64,000 nt of DNA from positions 64,001-128,000 of IMG/VR virus record IMGVR_UViG_3300038300_000071; one strand, written 5' to 3'. The notes below the pieces were generated by a model. It saw only the letters and a list, made by a program, of their open reading frames with translations, made no database searches and was not told the origin of the DNA. This stretch comes from a virus (lineage: Duplodnaviria; Caudoviricetes). Below are positions 2,951 through 38,625 of the stretch, in pieces (within the stretch, counting starts at the first letter, position 1; every line of letters starts with the position of its first letter). The position numbers and the translations under genes were made by a program.

Positions 2951-4123
2951 ATGATTGTATACAAGTGTTTAAAAACATTCTTCTGCTCGCAGCTTAAAAG
3001 ATATATAGCTATAGATGCGATTGTTTATAGGTATGAGAATTCCACTAAGATAAATATAAATGGCTCTCCTTATACTGACTCAACAACTCAAGTTACATCA
3101 AACAGTTGGGAATTCGAAGATGAAACAGAAGTAACATGGTTCTACGAGCTTGAACCAGCTCCGAAAGGAACGTCTCTGTCAGGATTTTTTGAGTTTGTAA
3201 CGTATCTTCCAGAAGATGAAGCAGGCGGTGGTATTGGGGCTGGAACTGGCCCTGCTGGAGATATGATTTACATTGGGGATATTTTAGTTAGTGGAGATTT
3301 CCCAGATCTAATCGATAGAAGAATAGGCGATGTGTATCTAGTAGAAGCTCCCGTAACAGATCCAGAAACTGGTAATGATTATACTAATAATCAAACAATC
3401 ATGTGGGATGGGACTGAGTACGTAATTATAGGATTGTCTGATATTGAGGCAACTTCGTCAAATGAAAGAATAATAGAGCAGACTGCTCATGGATTCTCTC
3501 TTGGGGATATTGTAAGAATAGATTCGGTAACTGATTCATATGTTCTTGCGCAGTCTGATACTGATGTCAATTCGGAAGCAGCAGGAATGGTTACATTTAT
3601 AACAGACGTAGATCATTTTACCCTTACGACAGATGGATATTTTGACTTAACTGGATCTGGAGCCTCTGCGCTTCCTCTGGATATAGGATGTGTTTATTTC
3701 TTAAGCACAACCGTCGCAGGAGGAGTTCAGTTGACCTCTCCTAGTTTTGTTGGACAAATAACAAAGCCAATATTCTTATCTGAAACTGCAAACACTGGTT
3801 ACATTAGAATAATGAGAGGAGTTGAAATACTTCCTGCTCCTACAATTGTAGATGATGAATCTGACAGTGGTTACTTGGATATTGGTGATGCTAGAATTCA
3901 GTGGGGAAGAACTTCTTCAACTTTAGATACTGGCGAAACAATAGCATTCAATGTTCCGTTTGGAGTTGTGCCAGTTGTAACGACCACTTTAGAGCATCTT
4001 GGAAGCGAGGGCGGTGGAATATCAAGCATTACTGTTAATGACTTTATATATAATAGAGATGATGCTGTGGCAAATCCGGCATTTATTCATTGGCATGCTG
4101 TTGGTAAAAAGCCTATAGTGTAA
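2951..4123 (+). CDS. Probable tail fibre/structural protein
   Basis: QTAHGFSLGD and YFLSTTVAG motifs; C-terminal IQWG...IAFNVPF...WHAVG (gp53-like/H-lectin-like fibre domain). Confidence 0.55.
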   Translation: MIVYKCLKTFFCSQLKRYIAIDAIVYRYENSTKININGSPYTDSTTQVTSNSWEFEDETEVTWFYELEPAPKGTSLSGFFEFVTYLPEDEAGGGIGAGTGPAGDMIYIGDILVSGDFPDLIDRRIGDVYLVEAPVTDPETGNDYTNNQTIMWDGTEYVIIGLSDIEATSSNERIIEQTAHGFSLGDIVRIDSVTDSYVLAQSDTDVNSEAAGMVTFITDVDHFTLTTDGYFDLTGSGASALPLDIGCVYFLSTTVAGGVQLTSPSFVGQITKPIFLSETANTGYIRIMRGVEILPAPTIVDDESDSGYLDIGDARIQWGRTSSTLDTGETIAFNVPFGVVPVVTTTLEHLGSEGGGISSITVNDFIYNRDDAVANPAFIHWHAVGKKPIV

Positions 4124-17059: not shown

Positions 17060-17169
17060 GCCGGAGTAGCTTAATTGGTTAGAGCATAAGTGAAGCGCAT
17101 CATCGGAGACTAGTTAATCCTTTGTTGCTAGTATCTTAAAGGTTGCAGGTTCAAGTCCTGCCTCCGGCA
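17060..17169 (+). ncRNA. tRNA-like RNA with 44-nt segment replacing the anticodon loop
   Basis: Perfect GCCGGAG/CTCCGGC acceptor; canonical D- and T-arms; TAAG/CTTA stem enclosing 44 nt. Confidence 0.75.
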
Positions 17170-20979: not shown

Positions 20980-21735
20980 ATGCGGAAGAAGAAGAGAGCG
21001 GAAGAATCGTCTTTAAAGAATACTGGTGGAAAAAATAATCCTGTTGGAGAAGACTGGAAAAAGCCTTGGTGTACTTTTAAAGGCAATGATAACGGACTTA
21101 AACAGAAGCAATATTGCGATTTAATAGGTAGCAGCGAAATAACTATATGTGCTGGCCCAGCTGGAACGGGGAAATCATATATCTCAATATACAAGGCGTT
21201 GGATTTGCTATGGAAGAAGGGTAATGGATATGATAAGATAACTTTATTTAAGCCAGTAGTTGAAGCTGATGAGAAGATAGGATTCCTACCTGGCAGCGTC
21301 GAAGATAAGATTTCCGTATATTCAAGTTCTTCTTTGAGCATAATTGACAAGATAATCGGGAAAGAGAAGAGATTGGAATTGGTATCAATGGGAATTATTG
21401 AATGTAGAGCTTTGGCCTACATAAGAGGAGATAGTTTTGATCATACCATTCTAATTCTAGAAGAGGGGCAGAACTCTAGCCCAAGGCAGATGAAAACGTT
21501 ATTGACGAGAATTGGTGAAAAGACTAAATATATTATCAATGGAGATATGGATCAGTCTGACAGATTCAAAGATTACACAAAAACAGGCCTTTATGATGTG
21601 GTTAATAGGCTAAAGGGAATTGAAGGTGTTGGAACGTTTGAGTTTGAAATAGGCGACATCGTTAGGAATCCGATTATCAGTAAAATTCTTGAAAGGTATG
21701 AAGATGACTATGATGATGGAAGAATGTTTGAATAA
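20980..21735 (+). CDS. phoH: PhoH-like ATPase
   Basis: GPAGTGKS, IGFLPG, AYIRG, EEGQN, LTRIG, GDMDQSD motifs. Confidence 0.93.
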   Translation: MRKKKRAEESSLKNTGGKNNPVGEDWKKPWCTFKGNDNGLKQKQYCDLIGSSEITICAGPAGTGKSYISIYKALDLLWKKGNGYDKITLFKPVVEADEKIGFLPGSVEDKISVYSSSSLSIIDKIIGKEKRLELVSMGIIECRALAYIRGDSFDHTILILEEGQNSSPRQMKTLLTRIGEKTKYIINGDMDQSDRFKDYTKTGLYDVVNRLKGIEGVGTFEFEIGDIVRNPIISKILERYEDDYDDGRMFE

Positions 21736-21759
21736 TATTTAAAAAAAAGAAAAAGCAAG

Positions 21760-21788
21760 TGGACAATATTAGTTTCATGCGCTATAAT
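21760..21788 (+). promoter_or_regulatory. sigma70-type promoter
   Basis: TGGACA-17 nt-TATAAT. Confidence 0.7.
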
Positions 21789-21859
21789 AAAGACATAAGC
21801 TTCAATATATAAAGAATCAGGCAAAATAAAAAAGTGATTAATTGAGAGGCTTATGTTTT

Positions 21860-21946
21860 GGATATATAGCTCAGCGGCCAGAGCAGAAGGATTCTAACCC
21901 TTTGGTAGTCGAAAGGCAGGCGCAGGTTCGATTCCTGTTATATCCT
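21860..21946 (+). tRNA. Atypical tRNA with long variable arm; possible amber suppressor (CTA), anticodon register ambiguous
   Basis: GGATATA/TATATCC acceptor; normal D- and T-arms; GAAGG-ATTCTAAC-CCTTT arm; GAAA-capped variable arm. Confidence 0.6.
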
Positions 21947-22164
21947 TTTCTTATATTCATTGCGGCGACGCTAGTACATGCGGACTAAAGCGAACGGTGG
22001 AGCACCTCTAAAGTGTTCTTGACAAGCAAGGAAATGTACTGCTTGTCAAATATAAGATCGAGGCTTGATTTTCTTGTTGCGGAAAATCTGATCGCAAGCG
22101 GTAGAAGTCCGAAGTAACATTATTTTTTAACGTAAGTAAACAAAAGCAAAGTAAGGAAAAGAAA

Positions 22165-22269
22165 ATGAAAAAAGTATTCTTGTAGATCAAAAGAGGCCCT
22201 CCGGCATTAATTCGGTGTTTAAAAGTTTTTAGAGTTGAATTAATTAAATATATCGGAGAAGAAAAATGA
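22165..22269 (+). promoter_or_regulatory. Amber-interrupted uORF MKKVFL*IKRGPP...EEK (putative translational attenuator)
   Basis: AAGGA RBS; TAG at 22183-22185; RGPP follows after two codons; final TGA overlaps the ATG at 22266. Confidence 0.6.
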
Positions 22270-22634
22270 TTACTATTGAAAAAAATGAAACAGAAGTAAG
22301 TGAAATAGAAGTAAACAAGATTAGAGCAGTTAAGGCTAACTTGAAGACGAAGATTAAAGACCAAGCTGTTCTTCAGAAGAGAGCCAAGTCTAATAATAAA
22401 GAAGTACAGCGTGAAGTAACTAAGTGTGGATGGAATTCAGATCTTTACAAGAGAAGAATGATCAATTTGTCCTACGACATTACGCTAACCCACATTCTTT
22501 ATAATCGCCTAAGAAATAGACCTCCTCATACAGGATCTGTCGAAAGCGATAATTCATACATGTCTACGTATGGAGATTACTCAAATATAAAAAATGATCT
22601 AGAGTCTAGATTCTCAATAAGCTTGGGAGTTTAA
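22266..22634 (+). CDS. Hypothetical protein upstream of the Pth2-like gene
   Basis: GGAG RBS; one nucleotide separates it from the next gene. Confidence 0.7.
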   Translation: MITIEKNETEVSEIEVNKIRAVKANLKTKIKDQAVLQKRAKSNNKEVQREVTKCGWNSDLYKRRMINLSYDITLTHILYNRLRNRPPHTGSVESDNSYMSTYGDYSNIKNDLESRFSISLGV

Positions 22635-22635
22635 G

Positions 22636-22962
22636 ATGGAATCTAGAATGTATATCTTAGTCAATAAGTCGTTGACCAAATCTCAAAGAATACCTCAATC
22701 ATCTCATGCAGTGGCAGAATTTATGCATACTCATGGGTCTGACAAAAAGGTTAAGACTTGGGTGGAAGATCACAGAACGATGGTTGTCCTTGAATCTGAC
22801 TTTAGCAATATGGATGACATATTAAATACAGTCGAAAAGGATGGATATAAGGCCAGATCTTTTAGAGAGCCTGATTTGAACGATGTGGTGACTGCTATTG
22901 CTTTTGAACCTATGACAAGGCAGGAAGGCGGAAAGTATTTTTCAAGATTAAAATTGGCGTAA
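22636..22962 (+). CDS. Peptidyl-tRNA hydrolase 2-like protein
   Basis: MYILVNKSL..SQ..PQSSHA, MVVL, FREPDL...TAIA pattern. Confidence 0.75.
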   Translation: MESRMYILVNKSLTKSQRIPQSSHAVAEFMHTHGSDKKVKTWVEDHRTMVVLESDFSNMDDILNTVEKDGYKARSFREPDLNDVVTAIAFEPMTRQEGGKYFSRLKLA

Positions 22963-24303
22963 TGAAGCATTGGAGAGGCTTTACGGCCTCTCTTTTCTTT
23001 TTAAAGGAGTAAAGATGAAAAAAGAAAATTATGATAAGTTGGTAGAAGAATTTGTCGATCTTGAAGATTTGGTTTATGGTCATATTGAAAGGTATAAGGA
23101 GTTCTATGGCGATGGGTGTTGCCATGTCGGTATGGATTCTTTTGATGAATGTACTGTAGAACTTAGCGGAGTTGAGACATGGAGGTATGGAGGTCGAGAG
23201 GAGCATTTCTTAACTTTAGAAGTTGATGATCTGTTTAGCGAAGAGAGAATGAATGTTAAGCTTAAAAAGAGAAGTGATGAGATTATAAAAGAGAAGAATA
23301 AGAAGAAGAGAGCGGAGCAAAGAAAAAAGAGGGAAAAGATTAAAGCTGCTCGTAAGTTGCTAAAGGATAATAACGAATTATGAATGTAAGAGAGCTGATA
23401 AACGAGTTGAAGGGATGCGATCCTGATGCAATAATTTGCACTGGGGGAAATGAGTCTATAAATTATATAGAGTGTTTACCTTCTTATTATGATGGAAGAC
23501 TTATGCATGTAATGCAGGATGAATGTGGAAACCCTGTTAAGATATCGATGAGGAGTGGTGGATCAAAGGTCAAAATGCATTCGTATGACATTGAGGATGT
23601 TATTTTTGATAATCCAAGAATAGAAGTTGAAACTGGGGATGGCTTTAACTCATCTTTAAGTACTTATGCTGAGTGGAGACAGGAAGGTTTAGATTATGAA
23701 AGAAATGCAAGAAAAAAGTTTTATCATTACGGTTATTTAGAAAAGTATGACGACATGTTGTTTATATGGGATGTGGTAGAATTATGAGGAGAAGAGATAT
23801 GAAGAAGGAATTTATAAAAGTAAAGACGGATGGCTTTGAGAATCTAACAGAGGGTAAGATTTATTCAGTTTTGTCTTGCGATGTGTGGGATATGGCCCTA
23901 GTTTATCTTTTTTTTAATGATGTGGGGAAGTTGGTTCAGCATCATGACTGGGAGGATTATTGGGAAGATAACTTTGAGTTAATTAACGAGGAGATGACAG
24001 ATAGGGAGGTGATGATATTTAACAGTGGAATATCTCACGGACTTTGTATAGCAAAGACAGATGTTGACGAAGAGTATGGAATGAAATGCTTTGAGAGGGG
24101 GAAGAAGAAGCGCAAGAGTCTGAAGGAGAAAAAAGGATATCTTTGGTTGGACGATGGGGTTGAGAAGATAAGGAGTAATTTAAATAGTCTTTACAGTGAG
24201 AAGACAGATCATTTCTATGACAGTGGTGATAAAGATGGTATAGTTTGATTTAGAAGTTGAAAAATAAATAATGACGTGTATTGTAATGTAAGAAAAAATA
24301 TAA

Positions 24304-37060: not shown

Positions 37061-38625
37061 AAAAGAAAAATTCAAAAGGGCCAATGACCAAAGAAGAAAG
37101 GAAGAGAAGGACTAAAAAGATTAAATCCGTTAGGCATTTGGCTCAAAACATACATAAGCTTAGAAGTGCGGTAAGAACGGATTTAAGATCTGACGATGAG
37201 AAGAAAAGACTTACTGCTTTGGCTGTTGCTTTGATGGATAAGACGGCAGAGCGCGTTGGAAATGAAGCGTCTGCAAGAGATAATGGTCATTTCGGAGTAA
37301 CTGGATTTAGAAATAATCATATTGAGGTCAACGGCAATAATGTAAAAATAGACTATGTCGGAAAGTCAGGAGTTAAGCAGAGTAAATCTTTCAGTGATAA
37401 AGCGATTGCTGATGCTGTAAAGAAATGCAAGGGAAATTGCAAGAGCGGGAATGACAATGTTCTGACAACATCGGATGGATTTAGAGTAAGGGCAGACAGA
37501 GTTAATAGATATTTAGAGAGATTTGATATTACTGCAAAAGATATCAGAGGATATTCTGCAAATAAGATGATGCATGATTATCTTACCAAAGTAAAGAAGC
37601 CTAGTACTCCAGAAGAAAGAAAAAAAGTTTTTTTAGAGGGTTTGGCAAAAGTATCAGAAAGAGTAGGACATGGGAAGAATACCCTTAGATTGCATTATTT
37701 GTTGCCGAAAATAGAAAAATCATACATAAACAGTGGTAAAGTTATGAATATAAAGAAAGCCTATGATGAAAGGCAAAATGCAGAGGTTCAGAATATACTG
37801 GAAGATGTATATCCAGAAACGGCTCAGACTTTATTGCTAAAAAATGCAATGGACTACTGGGATACGACGAGGAATTATCCGAATGGGGATTGGAAGGGAG
37901 CGGAGAAATTTTATTTTTGGTTGGCTGTAATGAATGATACGGCGGCATTGGAAATTTCACATAAGGATAGTTACCCTTCATCTCTGCAAGATTCGAATGG
38001 AAGTGCTTGGAGAGTTTTAGTTCCGCATGAAGATGCGGACAGAAAAGCAATTGTTTTAGATATAAATAGCATCAAGCATGATGGCGTTAGTACTTTAGGG
38101 ACTCAAATATACTCAACAAATGATATTGACTTGTCTGAGTTGAATTGGATTAGTAGCGGAGACCATTGGACAAGATCTATACTGTGGCTTATAGAAGAAG
38201 CTAAAATGCTATCGGAAAACGGGGAAGATTTGTCAAAAGTTATTAATGGGTATAATCTAAGGTTAGAAATAGTTAGCTTAATGCATACTATTAGATTGGA
38301 GTTGACGGTTGAGATGAAAGAGATTTATAAAGCTATGACGGGAGTTGAGTTGACGCTGCCCAATGTAACGATAGCTTTGAATGATTGGAATTTTACTCCA
38401 GAGTCGGTTGCATCATTGATGTATCCTTCTGGGTGTCTGAAGTGGGCAGTCGTAACGGTATCTCCAAAGGCGTTTAAGCATGGAATGGAATATGTTAGAT
38501 ATGTTATAATGCACGAATTAATTCATTTGGCAGTAGGCGAAGGCGATAAAGATGGCCATGGGCACGGTGCTAAATTTAATATGTTAGCAGAGTCTATGGG
38601 TCTTCCTAAACAATTTAGAGATTAA
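37057..38625 (+). CDS. DNA topoisomerase IB catalytic domain fused to SprT-like metalloprotease domain
   Basis: RVGNE, YVGKSG, AKDIR, VGH, HYL (TopoIB residues); C-terminal HELIH...HG..F. Confidence 0.8.
   Translation: MKKKNSKGPMTKEERKRRTKKIKSVRHLAQNIHKLRSAVRTDLRSDDEKKRLTALAVALMDKTAERVGNEASARDNGHFGVTGFRNNHIEVNGNNVKIDYVGKSGVKQSKSFSDKAIADAVKKCKGNCKSGNDNVLTTSDGFRVRADRVNRYLERFDITAKDIRGYSANKMMHDYLTKVKKPSTPEERKKVFLEGLAKVSERVGHGKNTLRLHYLLPKIEKSYINSGKVMNIKKAYDERQNAEVQNILEDVYPETAQTLLLKNAMDYWDTTRNYPNGDWKGAEKFYFWLAVMNDTAALEISHKDSYPSSLQDSNGSAWRVLVPHEDADRKAIVLDINSIKHDGVSTLGTQIYSTNDIDLSELNWISSGDHWTRSILWLIEEAKMLSENGEDLSKVINGYNLRLEIVSLMHTIRLELTVEMKEIYKAMTGVELTLPNVTIALNDWNFTPESVASLMYPSGCLKWAVVTVSPKAFKHGMEYVRYVIMHELIHLAVGEGDKDGHGHGAKFNMLAESMGLPKQFRD

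Follow-up and report, generated by a model that had tools for sequence, protein, structure and literature searches.

What is the role of a short open reading frame (ORF) that is broken by an amber codon a few codons after its start, continues in frame into Arg-Gly-Pro-Pro (RGPP), and stands in front of a gene for a peptidyl-tRNA hydrolase? The question is raised by a 64,000-nucleotide stretch of viral DNA (Duplodnaviria; Caudoviricetes), hereafter the window, which comprises bases 64001-128000 of the single 202,452-bp contig IMGVR_UViG_3300038300_000071 in IMG/VR (37% GC). With its length, its 29 tRNA genes and genes that lie nearly all on one strand, the source contig represents a large phage. 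In the window, a tRNA gene is followed by the interrupted leader ORF, a gene for a 122-aa protein and a gene for a Pth2-like hydrolase. An earlier, sequence-only reading had proposed that the leader senses read-through of its stop codon and switches on the two genes behind it. The conserved leaders and RNA pairings described below support this interpretation: the leader is likely to be a translational switch whose input is the decoding of UAG, and in which a stall at RGPP would unmask the operon.

Every element of the leader on which that proposal was built is present. An AAGGA ribosome site precedes an ATG that opens MKKVFL, the TAG, Ile-Lys and RGPP (ATG AAA AAA GTA TTC TTG TAG ATC AAA AGA GGC CCT CCG, 22165-22203), and the frame does stay open past the TAG to a TGA overlapping the ATG of the 122-aa ORF. 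The R-[A/G]-P-P motif thus belongs to a small ORF that precedes the next gene in the same orientation, as in known RGPP/RAPP leaders. Only nine residues precede RGPP, the amber position included (MKKVFL-x-IK), which does not accommodate a targeting signal. A six-frame translation of the 202-kb genome contains R[GA]PP just twice, and the pattern of ATG, 1-9 codons, TAG, 0-14 codons and R-x-P-P matches once, at the leader. From the Shine-Dalgarno (SD) sequence to RGPP, the nucleotides are invariant between the window and the related loci L019 and L001, while the proteins of the three differ by 15-26%; the leader is therefore under selection in this clade.

We assembled homologues of the Pth2-like protein from metagenomes and IMG/VR into 62 loci (cited by L numbers; 32-66% GC; 294 kb fetched in total), with hydrolases 29-85% identical to that of the window. 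The search for TAG and RGPP ahead of homologous Pth2-like operons was positive. It returned 30 distinct leaders, all on the gene strand and directly upstream of the module of 122-aa and Pth2-like genes, and ATG..TAG..R-x-P-P gave no match on the opposite strand or elsewhere in the 294 kb. Their consensus is Met, 1-7 residues, TAG, (x), Gly-Phe-Thr, TAG, 2-4 residues, Arg-[Gly/Ala]-Pro-Pro and a stop 0-20 codons later, as in M-Y-TAG-G-F-T-TAG-V-A-R-G-P-P-M-G-P (L041), M-L-TAG-I-T-S-Y-F-C-Q-T-R-A-P-P (L044) and M-T-TAG-I-G-F-T-TAG-K-F-A-R-G-P-P (L024). The leaders span 10-35 codons and are interrupted by one to three UAGs in frame; in 26 of 28, the second codon 5' of the last TAG encodes Phe or Tyr, and the distance from the last TAG to Arg is exactly two codons in 15 of 30. 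Across the leaders, no start codon is consistently placed after the TAGs. In the window core F-L-TAG-I-K-R-G-P-P, the remaining TAG is equivalent to the second one of full leaders; the first has been lost.

Scanning IMG/VR with a 14-base pattern gave 31 matches, mostly due to chance; four were real leaders, and each of these adjoins a tRNA with a CUA anticodon. No nucleotide match to the region was found among GenBank phages, and tblastn of two members of the 122-aa family against 50,697 GenBank phage records found nothing. The Pth2-like genes of cultured Aeromonas and Escherichia phages, 30% identical, lie in other contexts with neither leader nor CUA tRNA. That the leader is a chance ORF in an intergenic spacer might be entertained for so short an ORF in an AT-rich region of unexceptional folding energy, but its retention in 30 loci of 32-66% GC and the uniqueness of its pattern in the genome refute this, and we give the idea practically no weight. 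Judged by this comparison, the leader arrangement is not chance.

Selection on the leader acts on codons. The first and second codon positions of the core are nearly fixed, the third positions of the Gly, Phe, Thr, Arg, Gly and second Pro codons are free (entropy 1.1-1.9 bits), and the Arg codon switches between CGN and AGA. Within the last 60 nt before the Arg codon, TAG occurs 50 times in frame versus 12 times out of frame; for TAA and TGA together the figures are 8 in frame versus 48 out. An in-frame TAG precedes 28 R[GA]PP sites, every one of them upstream of the module, and none of the eight background R[GA]PP sites on the opposite strand. Selection on the leader peptide at the amino-acid level, on both sides of the TAG, is strongly supported by these alignments.

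A constraint on the RNA is superimposed on that on the peptide. The complementarity noticed earlier between the Pro-Pro codons and the downstream ribosome site was recovered in the minimum-free-energy (MFE) fold of the window, where CUCCGG pairs with UCGGAG and covers the SD of the 122-aa gene (GGAG, 22255-58; pairing probability 0.87-0.91), and the inner helix thought to support this fold was found as a hairpin inside the pairing. The predicted structure sequestering the ribosome site is therefore overlapped by the stall site, as expected of an arrest leader. In MFE folds of the 19 foldable loci, CCUCC of the Gly-Pro-Pro codons is paired with the downstream SD in 18, with a variable hairpin enclosed, and the first Pro codon is CCT in 26 of the 30 leaders over the whole GC range. 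L024 (CCG CCT) and L042 (CCC CCT) have lost CCUCC and kept Pro-Pro. In L001 and L019, two G-U to A-U changes preserve the inner hairpin. In about ten loci, the 2-3 codons before CCUCC pair also with the first codons of the downstream gene; this start-region helix reaches z values of -2 to -7 against shuffles or other intervals of the same locus, and its pairing is maintained by changes such as CGU/ACA to CGC/GCA. Because the helices are not in register from clade to clade, this pairing was assessed by per-locus duplex energies with shuffles and not by fixed columns of a MAFFT alignment. In 17 of the 19 loci, 63-85 nt separate the Arg codon from the start of the downstream gene, the two exceptions measuring 43 and 175 nt; a ribosome stalled at RGPP would be far enough away to leave the SD free.

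Such pairing could also be read as the whole story, with the TAG a true stop, the leader an MKKVFL minigene or untranslated, and the RGPP codons just the anti-SD strand of a hairpin that is constitutive or regulated by a protein or an RNA. The nucleotide conservation of CCUCC, with its preferred CCT, would fit, as would the nucleotide invariance of the whole 5' part in the window clade, the use of TAG as a stop in the genome, the ambiguous anticodon of the window tRNA (see below) and the retention at L010 of a CGTGGTCCTCC element with no recognisable leader start. Yet ATG, TAG(s) and R-G/A-P-P share one frame in all 30 leaders despite length changes, the TAGs are biased towards that frame, Arg alternates between CGN and AGA, the third positions are free, and L024 and L042 break CCUCC while keeping Pro-Pro; we regard a purely RNA-based element as unlikely. 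In L010 (3500-3530), the nucleotide element ACTCGTGGTCCTCCG lies upstream of the module, directly after a terminator-like hairpin; leader start and TAG are both missing there, and the element may be a degenerate or purely RNA-based form.

How, then, would the switch work? The arrest caused by RAPP and RGPP is robust and insensitive to EF-P; the two Pro codons of the motif, its third and fourth, occupy the P and A sites, and peptide-bond formation to the A-site Pro-tRNA is blocked (PMC12992588, PMC10951233). With a TAG and then this stalling motif in front of it, the operon is probably translated only when UAG is read through. If no tRNA reads UAG, RF1 would terminate the leader after six residues, the CUCCGG:UCGGAG helix and the inner hairpin would stay closed, and the 122-aa and hydrolase genes would be poorly translated. 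Read-through, probably by the tRNA encoded 219 nt upstream of the leader in the same transcription unit, would carry the ribosome five codons further, to arrest with the first Pro codon in the P site and the second in the A site. The stalled ribosome would cover about 22183-22215 and melt both helices, the freed SD would be open to new ribosomes, and the 122-aa gene and then the hydrolase gene would be translated, with an operon output proportional to amber read-through. The sequence-only reading had allowed either read-through or slow termination by RF1 to open the operon. The conservation, the pairing in 18 of 19 loci and the published motif support that reading as a whole. Slow termination alone, however, would be insufficient because a ribosome at the UAG stops about five codons short and does not reach the anti-SD at 22199; read-through followed by RGPP arrest would thus be required.

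Two other devices were considered. A transcription attenuator was ruled out because there is no terminator between the leader and the 122-aa gene: no terminator-like site lies between 22165 and 22266, and the reported ones are found only inside the tRNA and at 22972, after the operon. The ATGA overlap was set aside as a translational-coupling device, as it is not conserved in L019, whose leader goes out of frame beyond RGPP and ends 22 nt short of the next ATG. This frame shift and early stop fit ribosomes that normally do not translate beyond the arrest site.

In most relatives, the hydrolase gene carries a stop codon of its own. Among 41 distinct genes that could be aligned, 31 (L053:3316, L039:4103, L044:4103 and 28 more) have an in-frame TAG at a single fixed position following AEFMxxxG. 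The residue there in complete database homologues is Gln, which is thus the predicted residue for insertion at UAG; within the 122-aa genes no TAG was found. TAA takes this lock position in three loci (L029, L045, L050) and replaces the TAG after G-F/Y-T in three leaders (L027:3981-4000, L029:~95, L062:~3270), which suggests ochre-type versions of the module. Taken together, the fixed TAG, the TAA variants and the linked CUA tRNA point to a module built around stop-codon read-through. By comparison with these loci, the window holds the module in reduced form: its leader has one TAG and its hydrolase gene none, against two leader TAGs and a third in the hydrolase gene in most relatives. Its lock position is the Ser codon TCT, and close relatives have TCC, CTG or TTG; each of these Ser and Leu codons of the window clade is one or two changes from TAG. 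In L007 (4953-5003), a CUA tRNA is followed after 62 nt by ATG TTA TAG, which has an SD in front, shares its frame with the called TTG start and seems to be where the Pth2-like gene begins. The enzyme would then carry a TAG lock at its own codon 3 and do without a separate leader.

A link to amber suppression is seen in much of the family. Of 63 fetched stretches, 34 contain a tRNA with a clean CU-CUA-AA anticodon loop, in many cases 40-400 nt 5' of the leader, and the tRNAs syntenic with that of the window have a clean CUA in 27 other distinct loci. This synteny favours a suppressor origin of the window tRNA. The latter has a cloverleaf (53.8 bits), and its anticodon can be placed in two ways: ARAGORN gives UU-CUA-AC, closed by an A-C mismatch, and the Rfam alignment AU-UCU-AA, in which the A-C mismatch is internal. 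The gene does not duplicate the phage tRNA-Arg(UCU), and position 20 in the D-loop is C instead of A. In E. coli, A20 is an identity element for ArgRS. Both C20 and the absence of kinship to the phage tRNA-Arg(UCU) count against an arginine identity.

Several further features of these RNAs were observed. Throughout the window clade (window, L019, L001), the anticodon arm is readable as CUA or UCU. The window and L019 (3384-3469) tRNAs share a variable-arm insert, a 3-bp stem with a GNRA loop (GUC-GAAA-GGC and GUC-GUAA-GAC, a U-G to U-A change), while the L001 tRNA (1063-1135) has 73 nt and no such insert. In four loci, tRNA-like RNAs with anticodon loops of 12-13 nt and normal acceptor, D and T arms (L011:3555-3633, L015:3548-3628, L016:~3556-3640, L017:~3545-3625) lie directly 5' of M-x-TAG-V-S-K-P-P-stop leaders; there a normal CUA tRNA follows the gene that fuses the 122-aa domain to the hydrolase. 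Elsewhere in the window, a 110-nt Rfam tRNA match (17060-17169; 51.8 bits) has no ARAGORN call and is possibly a tRNA with an insertion. The 29 called tRNAs of the phage include no tRNA-Tyr.

A number of observations weigh against a read-through switch, above all in the window itself. Read with UCU, the tRNA has the canonical single nucleotide 26, and the variant in L019 speaks for that register; with a possible UCU anticodon, the phage may lack a working amber suppressor. Elsewhere in the genome TAG is a true stop, ending 52 of 278 ORFs, and no Pfam domain spans a TAG in the six candidate fusions of the genome. The nascent chain at arrest would have about 12 residues, shorter than the RAPP peptides studied. 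The start-codon helix seen in other loci is absent from the window clade, and the window structure is weak and AT-rich, with a total folding energy not better than shuffles (z -0.25).

The genetic code also bears on whether the TAG is a gate at all. Reading TAG as sense gains the genome no more coverage than reading TGA as sense, and this, with the 52 of 278 ORFs ending in TAG and the lack of a TAG-spanning domain, led us to reject a TAG-recoded (code 15-like) phage. In the fetched loci, a crude coding-density test did not separate TAG-sense from TGA-sense. One could nonetheless propose an ordinary RGPP arrest leader in which TAG is a plain sense codon of a recoded phage and the arrest is relieved, for example, by the operon's hydrolase working on the stalled peptidyl-tRNA; among known arrest leaders feedback by the downstream product is the rule, as in SecM-SecA and MifM-YidC (PMC7897499), and the product here is a predicted peptidyl-tRNA hydrolase. 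Against such a leader stand the one to three TAGs in leaders of 10-20 codons versus none in the 122-aa genes, the single fixed position of the hydrolase TAG, the standard code of the window genome and a coverage gain for TAG-sense in the fetched loci that does not exceed that for TGA-sense, and we consider it improbable. A peptide deformylase gene at genome positions 37422-38573 (L068; PF01327, E 4.5e-39) shares its frame with a preceding TAG-ending ORF, and its Pfam domain lies entirely after that TAG.

The hydrolase was rightly recognised as Pth2-like from its sequence: it matches PF01981 with 31.3 bits against a cut-off of 23 (E 2.5e-7; profile positions 2-114 of 115), and the family profile aligns over its full length to the archaeal Pth2 2zv3 (E 2e-6), with the Lys, Gln, His, Asp and Thr (TAVA) columns aligned and a DAGxTQ loop four residues shorter. 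Homologues of the 122-aa protein lie directly upstream of Pth2-like genes in about 30 loci, and the two domains are fused in one polypeptide in L011-L017. In predicted structure the 122-aa protein is all-helical (predicted local distance difference test score, pLDDT, 75). It has no Pfam or PHROG family, no Atlas neighbour, no close relative in IMG/VR and no Foldseek match at E <= 0.001; its best VIA Z is 5.9, to generic helical proteins, with no recognisable fold.

A hydrolase as the downstream enzyme also brings to mind the bar minigenes of lambda, which are toxic when Pth is limiting. On that model, a short Met-x-stop or MKKVFL-stop ORF would provoke drop-off of peptidyl-tRNA and so report the need for hydrolase instead of suppression. 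Many leaders indeed start ATG-NNN-TAG or even ATG-TAG, but the model would account neither for the in-frame conservation of the peptide beyond the TAGs nor for the second TAG, the linkage to a CUA tRNA or the TAG in the hydrolase gene, and a bar-like leader therefore appears very improbable. Under the switch, the operon might act as a timing gate, provide a safety interlock or feed back on suppression; the data do not favour any of the three. Quite tentatively, and with doubt prevailing, the cassette of tRNA, leader, 122-aa gene and hydrolase gene could be a self-regulating device for the state of the genetic code, its products feeding back on UAG read-through. The proteins might hydrolyse peptidyl- or aminoacyl-tRNA(CUA), or release read-through ribosomes, and suppression would be kept at a fixed level in a phage for which TAG still signals termination.

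All of these elements are arranged in one compact unit, in the order promoter-like site, tRNA, spacer, leader, 122-aa ORF, Pth2-like ORF and intrinsic terminator (Table 1). In the interval 21600-22700, no Rfam family other than tRNA was detected. The tRNA-leader spacer folds no better than shuffles (z -0.86). Its insertion of about 150 nt (about 21970-22115) is absent from L019 and L001 and unique in the genome, and contains a 10-bp palindrome, TTGACAAGCA...TGCTTGTCAA. In the related phage contigs L005 (7500-9260) and L009 (6211-7950), a Ro60/TROVE gene lies a few kb from the Pth2 module, with gaps of 1.2-1.5 kb holding tRNA genes in front of it.

Table 1 Coordinates of the transcription unit, numbered from the first base of the window
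Feature	Position	Strand	Support and remarks
Promoter-like TGGACA-17-TATAAT for the whole unit	21760..21788	+	Matches consensus at 11/12; kept in L001 and L019
tRNA, probably amber suppressor, anticodon ambiguous (CUA/UCU)	21860..21946	+	ARAGORN, Rfam tRNA alignment, synteny
tRNA-leader spacer	21947..22152	+	Contains the ~150-nt insertion; alignment with L001 and L019
Leader Shine-Dalgarno AAGGA	22153..22157	+	7 nt 5' of ATG; invariant in window, L001 and L019
Leader ORF MKKVFL-amber-IKRGPP..., 34 codons if TAG is decoded	22165..22269	+	ATG 22165-67; TGA 22267-69
In-frame TAG, putative gate	22183..22185	+	F-L-TAG-I-K-R matches family consensus [F/Y]-x-TAG-x-x-R
Arg-Gly-Pro-Pro arrest motif (AGA GGC CCT CCG)	22192..22203	+	Published motif (PMC12992588, PMC10951233)
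Anti-SD CUCCGG within the Pro-Pro codons	22199..22204	+	Paired with 22253-22258 in MFE and centroid structures
Inner hairpin stacked under the anti-SD:SD helix	22206..22244	+	Arms 22206-22215:22235-22244; RNA fold
UCGGAG with SD of the 122-aa gene, sequestered in the predicted fold	22253..22258	+	Pair probability 0.81-0.97
122-aa helical protein, motif HILYNRLRNRPPHTGS; ATG at 22266	22266..22634	+	Conserved partner of the hydrolase
Pth2-like peptidyl-tRNA hydrolase, 108 aa	22636..22962	+	PF01981; 1 nt after the stop codon of the 122-aa gene
Intrinsic terminator closing the unit	22972..23003 (also given as 22972-22993)	+	9-bp stem with 5 GC pairs, then T-run

If the switch operates as proposed, it would be the first natural one that we found described to turn the meaning of a stop codon into gene expression. 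Suppressor tRNAs of standard-code phages would then belong to circuits of their own, a point of relevance to the passage of phages from one genetic code to another, and the Pth2-type hydrolases of phages, so far loosely explained as ribosome-rescue aids, would be connected to amber suppressor tRNAs. The switch elements are short and portable. Were the feedback reading true, the cassette would moreover amount to natural feedback control over what a stop codon means, and Pth2-type enzymes would have a new role.

Among known regulators, prfB, the gene for RF2, uses an early in-frame stop to gauge its own decoding, through a +1 frameshift at a UGA within the gene, and so sets a termination-related product. 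The phage leader would be alike in that an early in-frame stop codon is measured and the output is related to translation termination; it differs in that suppressor read-through, and not a +1 frameshift inside the gene, would feed an arrest peptide that opens a downstream SD. The leaders trpL, hisL and ilvL, short and rich in the codons of one tRNA, report the availability of that tRNA. They act on a terminator via slow decoding, whereas in the phage leader a stop codon would be tested and an SD exposed, with no terminator involved.

The closest relatives in mechanism are the RAPP/RGPP arrest peptides (ApdA, ApdP, ApcA, CruR and the Streptomyces upstream ORFs; SecM with RAGP), in which a small upstream ORF likewise carries R-[A/G]-P-P and the expected stall, with Pro codons in the P and A sites, lies over a structure hiding the next SD, as here (PMC7897499, PMC10951233, PMC12992588). 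Those cases are bacterial, mostly contain a signal or membrane segment, and are relieved of arrest by pulling on the nascent chain, while the phage leader is phage-borne, has 10-35 codons and one to three putative UAG gates, and lacks a targeting signal; the published survey of such upstream ORFs makes no mention of phages (PMC12992588). By this analogy, the element would work like an arrest leader that lacks the targeting signal for a monitoring substrate and has gained a stop-codon gate. Having no signal or transmembrane segment, it would be a different class within the arrest-peptide kind. PepNL of E. coli, which arrests at a UGA stop and whose arrest is cancelled by read-through with Trp-tRNA, shares the dependence of arrest on stop-codon read-through (PMC11890864), but has the opposite logic, as the phage leader would need read-through to reach its arrest site.

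In recoded phages, a code change module clusters suppressor tRNAs with translation factors (bioRxiv 10.1101/2021.08.26.457843), and PTH2 occurs in jumbo phages (PMC7824862). Neither report ties Pth2 to suppressor tRNAs or describes a TAG-gated leader, and the window phage, unlike those carrying the code change module, is not recoded. In the literature on phage recoding, jumbo-phage PTH2 and arrest peptides, we found no description of an amber-gated arrest switch. Its nearest counterparts in logic are synthetic: in amber leader switches and suppressor-tRNA feed-forward circuits, output is conditional on amber suppression, as here (PMC6412442, PMC7969014). As described there, those circuits are engineered, while the phage leader is natural and uses an arrest motif. 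The leader would thus join RAPP/RGPP ribosome arrest with suppressor-tRNA read-through, a design that synthetic biologists have built by hand.

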